NCBI GenBank assembly: GCA_947630155.1 | Contig: CANRGM010000002.1 | Span: 1 to 44,003 of the forward strand | DNA from: an uncultured Clostridia bacterium | GTDB taxonomy: Bacteria > Bacillota > Clostridia > TANB77 > CAG-508 | Reading direction: 5' to 3' | DNA: 44,003 nucleotides | Part shown: positions 8,247 through 8,822 of the stretch, in pieces | How the letters are laid out: every line of letters starts with the position of its first letter | Numbering within the stretch: position 1 is the first letter of the stretch | Notes under the pieces: model-generated | The model's database searches: none | The model's input: the letters and a program-made list of their open reading frames with translations, nothing else | Told to the model about the DNA's origin: nothing | Made by a program: the position numbers and the translations under genes

Positions 8247-8723
8247 TTAATCAACATGAGTATGTTCTTTTTCTAATTCAGAAGTACAATGTGGGCATCT
8301 TGTTGCTTTGTAAGAAATTTCTGTATAACAGAAAGGACATAATTTTGTTTCTGGTTCTTTCTCTTCTTCAACTTTTTCTGATTTATGTCTTTTACCAACA
8401 GGAACTTTAGCTGATAATTTTTCTAGTTGCTCTTTACTTTTTCTATTTGCTGTGTTAACTAATTTTATCATTAAGAATAAGATGAAAGCAACTATTAAAA
8501 AGTTGATAACTGCAGTGATAAATGAACCATAATCTAAGGCTTGGTCATTCCATAGTGGGATAGTTCCTTTTACATCAGCGCCACCGATTAGGCCTAGTAG
8601 TGGTTTTATGAAGGAATCTGTAAATGCAGTAACTATGTCGGCGAAGGCACCTCCGATTATGACACCAATTGCTAGGTCCATTACATTACCTTTTGAGATA
8701 AATTCTTTGAATTCTTTGAACAT
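8247..8723 (-). CDS. mscL: Large-conductance mechanosensitive channel with C-terminal CxxC..CxxC zinc ribbon
   Basis: [44 protein letters not shown]. Confidence 0.95.
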
Positions 8724-8822
8724 AAAATTTCCTCCTTATAAGTTTTCGTATAGTTTTAATATACAGTAAAATGCGAAATTTGTCAAATTTTTGGGGGTGG
8801 GGAGGTGCTTTTTTGGGGGGCC

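Follow-up and report, generated by a model that had tools for sequence, protein, structure and literature searches.

Why should the codon usage of a gene shift where the gene comes to face a hairpin repeat? The question is raised by mscL in a stretch of 44,003 nucleotides (nt) of contig CANRGM010000002.1 (assembly GCA_947630155.1) from an uncultured Clostridia bacterium, referred to here as the window. The mscL open reading frame (ORF; 8247-8723, minus strand) encodes a 158-amino-acid protein with an MscL channel domain and a Cys-rich C-terminal tail, and residues 1-101 match the Pfam family PF01741 (MscL) at E = 3.2e-35, with 121.6 bits against a cut-off of 27.4, which places the protein in the family. 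The start of the gene is faced by copy 1 of a repeated element, ~190 nt in total, which comprises a left terminus (CTTTTTTGGGGGGCC, 8808-8822), a hairpin (8823-8981) and a right terminus (TACTCTACTG, 8982-8993), all read on the plus strand. We found that what shows as C-ending codons at the start of mscL belongs to a local zone of A-to-G (A>G) change on one strand that starts at the 5´ end of the element, and that A>T and T>G changes accompany A>G in this zone at lower rates. The hairpin repeats look like local hotspots of mutation where neighbor genes are recoded.

An earlier examination of the letters alone (the sequence-only reading) had counted 18 C-ending codons among the first 62 codons of mscL against three among the last 62, together with a split in Leu codon choice and no synonymous G-ending codon near the element, and all of these counts were reproduced exactly. 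The third letters of codons 1-62 (8538-8723) are A26, C18, T15 and G3, with GCC, GGC, GTC and TCC among them, versus A35, T22, C3 and G2 for codons 97-158 (Fisher test, p = 0.0005 for C-ending codons, 18/62 versus 3/62; p = 0.001 for C versus T among pyrimidine-ending codons, 18:15 versus 3:22). The first five Leu codons (17, 42, 43, 45 and 57) are CTA, eight of the nine remaining ones are TTA, and the only G-ending codons among the first 62 are ATG (twice) and TGG. As a baseline we used the codon usage of the assembly that contains the window (G000; the window contig is C2), a genome of 1.15 Mb in 101 contigs with 28% G+C that is 99.3% complete on marker genes; across its 785 ORFs of at least 150 amino acids, C occupies the third position of 5.5% of codons, and ATC, GCC, GGC, GTC and TCC account for 2-6% each of the codons for their own amino acid.

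The amino acid composition varies along mscL, as the sequence-only reading had cautioned, and the excess persists when the expectation is calculated given the amino acids: 18 C-ending codons were seen in codons 1-62 versus 3.45 expected (Poisson tail for at least 18, 3e-8), and only 537 of the 240,175 62-codon windows genome-wide reach this number. For codons 97-158, the count agrees with expectation (3 seen, 3.06 expected). Codons 63-96 (8436-8537) are still enriched (7 versus 2.12), so the zone reaches approximately codon 96 (position 8436), ~370 nt from the element. The zone proposed earlier, 8538-8822, is thus enriched as claimed but was drawn too short: the element-proximal part of mscL with excess C-ending and CTA codons, equivalent to A>G on the plus strand, comprises codons 1-96 (8436-8723, minus strand), with 25 C-ending codons versus 5.6 expected.

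Whether orthologs share the bias irrespective of the element was the comparison on which the idea was said to stand or fall. We detected mscL in 36 of 41 related genomes and compared 29 orthologous loci. The element adjoins mscL only in G000 and in one relative, G016, where codons 1-62 include 18 and 17 that end in C, while the other 27 orthologs have 0-12 (median 4); the outcome that would have refuted the idea was thus not seen. The nearest element-free orthologs, from G003 (86% identical protein) and G004, have four and one, and the former is a clean control, since G003 carries many copies of the element elsewhere. The next-highest counts, 12 in G024 and 10 in G012, are from other species; both of these genomes hold relatives of the element, and a weak element match (73-76% over 51-83 nt) was detected upstream of mscL in G024. 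In the alignment of the locus, G003 and G004 have A on the plus strand at positions where the window has G, and this pattern continues into the intergenic region (8724-8807), which carries the mscL promoter and leader followed by runs of G where the relatives carry runs of A, such that GTAAAAAAAATATGGTATAG of G003 aligns opposite TGGGGGTGGGGAGGTGCT of the window. Here TTGACA and TATATT on the minus strand can be read as the putative mscL promoter.

Polarization of the mscL changes with five outgroups gave the same picture. On the coding strand, the window lineage has 28 polarized changes, among them 16 T>C, one A>G and no C>T, compared with three T>C among 20 changes in the G003 lineage, so that the codon alignment with element-free relatives does reveal the T>C excess that had been predicted. 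T>C accounts for 10 of the 15 changes in codons 1-63 of the window lineage and for none in the same codons of the G003 lineage, and 14 of the 16 T>C changes fall within alignment codons 1-98. The changes in the window lineage are almost wholly at synonymous sites; for the five CTA codons, clean T>C polarization was obtained for codon 45 only. The G016 allele is not independent support, because mscL, the element and the next gene form a block (8250-9780) that is 95-100% identical between the two genomes, with flanks on both sides that are 61-89% identical (100-nt steps), which points to a recent exchange of this block between the window's species and that of G016. The same mscL 5´ sequence is also present in contigs from the runs of two studies, and the match in another study's run (X6 record 16, positions 8470-8738) has no differences. 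Its occurrence in the contigs of another study and in G016 argues that the mscL pattern is not an artifact.

We then extended the analysis to the whole of G000, in which 54 long inverted repeats were detected and at least 36 are copies with common termini, TTTTGCA(A/G)...GCC at one end and TACTCT at the other; the element strand is the one that reads from the former through the hairpin to the latter. Across these 36 elements, G/(A+G) on the element strand of the left (5´) flank was, reading outward to 300 nt, 0.62, 0.41, 0.39, 0.43, 0.45 and 0.42 (0.39-0.45 from 25 to 300 nt), then 0.35 and 0.36, before it reached the baseline of 0.32. The zone is strongest over ~300 nt and tails off to ~900 nt. 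On the right (3´) flank, G/(A+G) was raised in the first 50 nt only and was at baseline beyond, and C/(C+T) did not rise on either flank. Among the 28 copies that have 2 kb of left flank, 25 are G-enriched, with a mean excess of 0.111 versus 0.005 (standard deviation 0.062) at 1103 same-oriented gene-boundary sites (z = 9.1); none of 20,000 means resampled from the gene-boundary sites exceeded 0.049.

Codon usage in the genome as a whole agrees with these flank values. Of the 62-codon windows with at least 15 C-ending codons, 27.5% (393/1430) lie within 600 nt 5´ of an element, versus 1.5% of all windows; those near elements belong to 6 of 32 ORFs, and the other 26 ORFs have no such position, with several located at the ends of contigs. 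The most extreme copy, on contig C22, adjoins an L,D-transpeptidase-like gene whose first ~400 nt have an element-strand G/(A+G) of 0.71, with the gene strand nearly stripped of T and many amino acid changes. A plain GC-skew scan (100-nt windows, G-C of at least 24) was abandoned because the purine bias of coding strands dominates it, and the codon-based and G/(A+G) measures were used instead.

Does the bias follow transcription or the element? A histidine kinase gene (42135-43655, plus strand) ends 15 nt before copy 2 of the element (43670-43855, plus strand; arms 43685-43732 and 43796-43843, from the repeat search of the window) and is thus transcribed in the direction opposite to mscL. The copy 2 site is empty in G016 and G003, where the downstream gene is conserved. 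In the last 900 nt of the kinase gene, A>G on the coding strand, which here is the element strand, accounts for 43 of 96 private changes, beside five G>A and six T>C, versus 14/58 in G016 and 6/40 in G003; beyond 900 nt, the A>G share is alike in the three lineages (25-33%). The 43 A>G changes occurred at 359 ancestral A sites, and 30 are synonymous and 13 nonsynonymous. The overall number of changes is raised as well, with 39 private changes in the last 300 nt versus 17 and 17 in the relatives. The neighbor context of the A>G changes is confounded by codon position, and no conclusion was drawn from it. The suggestion that mscL repeats a pattern present at copy 2 is borne out.

Three further genes gave comparable results within 300 nt of an element. 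For thrS (threonyl-tRNA synthetase), which lies in the element's orientation beside the copy on contig C19, A>G makes up 19/40 private changes, versus 0/19 and 2/22 in the relatives. Element-strand A>G makes up 14/29 changes in an oppositely oriented gene beside the C3 copy, versus 7/13 and 1/25, and 8/16 in an oppositely oriented kinase gene beside the C58 copy, versus 1/11 in the nearer relative. The value of 7/13 is from the first 300 nt of the G016 ortholog of the C3 gene, even though that ortholog has no upstream element of this family (family 1). Pooled over the four genes in G000, the 124 changes within 300 nt are A>G 59, A>T 22, T>G 14, G>A 8, C>T 6, T>A 6, T>C 4 and A>C 0, versus 27 A>G among 191 changes in the same regions of the relatives (Fisher test for the A>G excess, p = 2e-8 in a tally that omits the distant L071).

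Third positions in 13 left-flank genes of both orientations likewise carry more element-strand G than expected, with ratios of seen to expected of 2.86, 2.90, 2.09, 1.49, 1.37, 1.34 and 1.04 from 0 to 1500 nt, that is, a ~2.9-fold excess in the first 200 nt that has dropped to 1.04 at 900-1500 nt; element-strand C does not change with distance in the same genes (0.41-0.70 of expectation). As oppositely oriented genes show the same element-strand A>G, the bias is independent of transcription, and the data support a bias that tracks the strand of the element. The proposal that it follows the element's strand or the replichore rather than transcription is therefore supported; strand and replichore are inseparable here, as 34 of the 36 copies are on the G-rich strand.

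How might such a zone arise? The reading we tentatively favor, giving it slightly less than an even chance, is that the strand 5´ of the element repeatedly becomes single-stranded during replication and that damaged adenines in it go unrepaired. The element strand is the G-rich strand and on that basis was taken as the lagging-strand template. When this template is unwound, the perfect arms of 43-57 bp would fold, and the folded hairpin could stall a polymerase arriving from the 3´ side or break the fork, leaving the DNA on the 5´ side of the hairpin single-stranded, in the form of a gap or of the resected 3´ tail of a one-ended break, until it is filled or repaired. Exposed adenines would be converted by deamination to hypoxanthine, whose pairing with C makes it read as G, or would suffer other damage. 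The probability of a gap would drop with distance from the hairpin, giving a gradient, and the double-stranded arms would be protected; G/(A+G) is 0.28 in the arms and 0.59 in the loops. There is a precedent for such exposure in the vertebrate mitochondrial heavy strand, where A>G increases the longer the strand stays single-stranded (PMC9561281, PMC3269012).

The repair genes detected are compatible with persistence of hypoxanthine, which the favored reading attributes to a genome without a recognizable enzyme to remove it. None of the 30 genomes searched in the genus gave an endonuclease V, and searches of G000 found no UDG and no Pur_DNA_glyco. Base-excision repair looks much reduced, in keeping with the low G+C content. 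MutS and MutL were found in G000 and would correct errors in the nascent strand, not damage in the template. As a separate observation, we found no tadA-type deaminase in G000 (a weak dCMP-deaminase-like hit is on C35), whereas a strong match is present in 27 of the genus's 30 genomes, and this absence may be an assembly gap.

Several results weigh against the exposure of single strands as the cause. No C>T gradient is seen beside A>G, as third-position C is flat and C/(C+T) at 100-300 nt is at baseline, and in single strands cytosine is reported to deaminate faster than adenine (PMC3269012). The rarity of C at free sites (5.5%) may hide such a gradient. Deamination also leaves 22 A>T and 14 T>G changes of the 124 unaccounted for. 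The direction of replication rests on the skew of short contigs, with gene orientation confounded with skew. Since a palindrome folds on either strand, exposure predicts that the mutated side is set by the direction of the fork; the other-strand copies on C58 and C66, which are on short contigs with near-zero skew, still have the effect on the element's 5´ side. The number of G residues in the terminus does not correlate significantly with flank enrichment (rho = 0.22, p = 0.22), nor does the G content of the loop (rho = 0.02). A smaller hairpin repeat of 71 nt has no flank effect (8 copies), and the effect is weak in G003 despite its many copies.

The second explanation is error-prone synthesis, in which forks stalled or broken at the hairpin lead to repeated degradation of the 5´ stretch and its resynthesis by a low-fidelity polymerase (Y-family or DnaE) that mainly inserts G opposite T while making the element strand. 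It would account for more of the spectrum than deamination does, as the pooled spectrum, with A>T 22 and T>G 14 beside A>G 59 and no A>C, is broader than deamination yields, and for the raised total of private changes in the last 300 nt of the kinase gene. We take this spectrum to resemble those of Y-family errors at A:T pairs, and one Y-family polymerase gene was found in G000. In yeast, palindromes raise the mutation of flanking genes by way of a translesion polymerase (PMC3681665), although that effect is two-sided and the effect here is on one side only. MutS and MutL, both present, should clear errors in the nascent strand, and if the synthesis instead filled a gap opposite the element strand, inserting G opposite a template T would produce T>C on the element strand, of which only four instances were seen. 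Overall we regard this explanation as unlikely, though it deserves serious consideration.

A third possibility is that the repeats are themselves the targets of an enzyme, either an adenine-specific deaminase or a reverse transcriptase error-prone at adenine, that is drawn to the element by its conserved termini or loop and edits exposed adenines beside the hairpin, possibly in bursts such as at insertion. Consistent with this, the effect is adenine-specific without a C>T partner, varies strongly between copies and between species, reaches extremes at single copies such as that on C22, and is missing beside the unrelated 71-nt hairpin repeat; the one-strand geometry 5´ of a structured element also resembles that of diversity-generating retroelements. 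However, no reverse transcriptase (PF00078) was found in G000, although its 101 contigs leave room for a missed gene even at 99.3% marker completeness, and the sole hit with a deaminase fold is weak and of the dCMP-deaminase kind. Within the window, the zones are unique sequence with no pair of template and variable repeats. Retroelement mutagenesis gives all three adenine substitutions, and A>C is absent from the 124 changes. We consider an enzyme aimed at the element improbable. Equally doubtful is the broader proposition that these repeats are targets of a natural adenine-specific DNA editing activity, an unrecognized deaminase or a polymerase unfaithful at adenine, that works on the single strand 5´ of the folded element, turns A into G across hundreds of bases and so recodes adjacent genes in bursts; if it were true, the repeats would be mobile "mutator beacons" that could seed the GRINS skew islands, discussed below, across bacteria.

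Least probable is that there is no local mutation bias and that the pattern stems from expression-related codon choice (highly expressed genes often favor TTC and ATC, a caveat raised by the sequence-only reading), selection on RNA or DNA structure in the flank, an imported block or insertion into sites that were already G-rich: the exchange of the mscL block with G016 does make the locus partly foreign, and the next-highest orthologs, with 12 and 10 C-ending codons, are from other species, but the comparisons of orthologs, polarized changes and private changes largely refute this view, given a change of one base on one strand (18 C-ending and no synonymous G-ending codons, unlike the product of a GC-richer donor), the same element-strand change in genes of both orientations, nonsynonymous changes among the kinase A>G changes (13/43), retention of A at the relatives' empty orthologous sites and enrichment at 25 of 28 independent loci.

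The closest known systems are the mitochondrial A>G gradient, palindrome mutagenesis in yeast and GRINS. In vertebrate mitochondria, A>G at synonymous sites is strand-specific, scales with presumed single-strand exposure and gives more C-ending codons on the opposite strand, as in the hairpin zones, but the gradient spans a whole genome, is set by that genome's two replication origins and has C>T alongside it (PMC9561281, PMC3269012). The hairpin zones show strand-specific, graded A>G at free sites, as the mitochondrial type of gradient does, over 300-900 nt from a repeat in a bacterial chromosome, and a C>T gradient is not apparent: element-strand C is not graded and 6 of the 124 changes are C>T, at free sites where C is rare. 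In yeast, a perfect palindrome raises mutation kilobases away, which was proposed to occur through long single-stranded regions and faulty synthesis, and the effect is two-sided, dependent on Pol zeta and measured as a rate (Saini et al., 2013; PMC3681665). The zones described here, in contrast, are an evolutionary footprint on the 5´ side only in which A>G predominates; past 50 nt on the right flank, G/(A+G) and C/(C+T) are at baseline, and third positions are flat.

GRINS are duplicated regions of more than 500 bp that are more than 80% identical to another region and are spread by gene conversion; the authors left the mechanism open and proposed C>T and A>G transitions (PMC8256042). The likeness is that functional coding DNA is locally recoded to G+T on one strand, most strongly at third positions, and the left flanks of the hairpins shift both skews upward, GC from 0.25 to 0.37 and TA from -0.08 to +0.12. 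However, the available part of the published description does not tie GRINS to a hairpin repeat (PMC8256042), and the hairpin zones consist of host DNA present once, with a gradient that runs from a repeat on one side. The window has no direct repeat over 8250-8800 or 42750-43655. GRINS are further delimited by mean absolute GC and TA skews that both exceed 0.15, and the corresponding values are 0.12 and 0.08 for the mscL zone (8436-8822), 0.72 and 0.02 for the last 300 nt of the kinase gene and 0.37 and 0.12 for the pooled left flanks. Diversity-generating retroelements share the adenine-specific change on one strand 5´ of a structured element; the hairpin zones differ in having no reverse transcriptase found in G000, no template and variable repeat pair in the window, no full set of adenine substitutions (no A>C) and unrelated housekeeping targets. 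A literature search over titles and the starts of abstracts, which did not cover supplements, found no description of an A>G zone beside a hairpin repeat in bacteria.

If these repeats do alter their neighbors, mobile repeats would affect adjacent genes beyond the insertion itself, through faster and directed sequence evolution, in genes that include mscL, a histidine kinase gene and the gene for threonyl-tRNA synthetase. Repeat-adjacent codon anomalies, faster substitution and a composition that looks foreign could then be mistaken for horizontal transfer or selection. An element of 190-260 nt with a one-sided gradient would also provide a tractable anchor for the unexplained skew islands of GRINS, and the repeats would offer a way to study how bacteria handle hairpins in the lagging-strand template. 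A natural A-to-G process in DNA would be of interest to base-editing research, and we know of no natural DNA adenine deaminase.

The element occurs outside the window's genome as well. Among 30 genomes of the genus, nine, counting G000, were found to have family-1 elements. The 18 copies in G003 show a weaker rise on the left flank, 0.28-0.37 versus a baseline of 0.27, with two copies strongly affected. A pattern scan of species-representative genomes gave 60 loci in five groups of metagenome-assembled genome records labeled Clostridia or Lachnospiraceae. One new group, with 16 copies, has a left-flank gradient from 0.40-0.43 to 0.30 and a flat right flank, and a second, with 17 copies, has little flank effect, the flank boundaries being approximate in both; two of the remaining groups are apparently genomes already analyzed and were not recounted, and the fifth is a single copy. 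In distant genomes, the loop core is the only conserved part of the element.

With respect to structure, the copy 1 hairpin has arms at 8823-8865 and 8939-8981 (43 nt, 100% complementary) around a G-rich loop of 73 nt, and folded as single-stranded DNA it reaches -51 kcal/mol (z = -10.9 versus 200 shuffles). Its termini were delimited by an alignment of 13 + 18 copies and by listings of the termini. The arms of the 36 copies differ between copies but are perfectly complementary, and the hairpins are either 159 nt or ~250 nt long. The ~250-nt hairpins, on contigs C1, C5, C12, C13, C15, C17, C19, C22, C31, C37, C44, C54, C59, C80, C87, C88 and C90, have arms quite unlike those of the 159-nt family and the same termini, and differences in the arms are paired such that complementarity is kept. 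The left terminus reads CTTTTGCAATAAGCC in 8 of the 18 G003 copies; A-rich termini were considered as a marker of unmutated copies and had no statistical support in G000. No Rfam family matched the element at its gathering score (no matches in the window), and the sole match at E up to 1 was to a plant microRNA hairpin model, with 28 bits against a cut-off of 195. A strong bias in orientation relative to replication, as in IS200/IS605-type or REP/RAYT elements, is seen here too (34/36 copies, with direction taken from skew only), but the Y1 (HUH) transposase of those elements was not found in G000 in a profile search with PF01797.

Other inverted repeats are present in the same genome. The separate 71-nt hairpin repeat begins TGTCAATGGGGACGGAG, has arms of 29-33 bp and occurs in at least nine copies, some of them inside copies of the larger element (window 10499-10577; contigs C12, C17, C20, C25, C60, C66 and C71); its silence indicates either that arm length matters or that the effect is specific to the larger element. 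Eight other long inverted repeats show some flank effect. Two of them, C54:4326-4551 and C35:8822-9008, have similar ends (CCGAGAGAAA and TTTCTCTCGG) and 5´ flanks of 0.61 and 0.44 versus 0.36 and 0.27 further out, and from their sequences may represent a third large-hairpin family with the same flank effect.

We also noted features of adjacent genes. On the bottom strand of C3:4851-4925, the left terminus gives TTGCAA 17 nt upstream of the TATAAT of the neighboring gene, and insertion of the element could donate a -35 element to a divergent gene. The gene to the right of copy 1 (9067-9772) may be frameshifted, since it reads as a pair of ORFs, 9067-9573 and 9458-9772, that overlap; its first part gave no Pfam match. 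Elsewhere in the window, a 9-nt periodic repeat of 19 registers (16892-17144) lies in a long ORF and encodes a linker rich in Pro, Glu, Thr and Gly.

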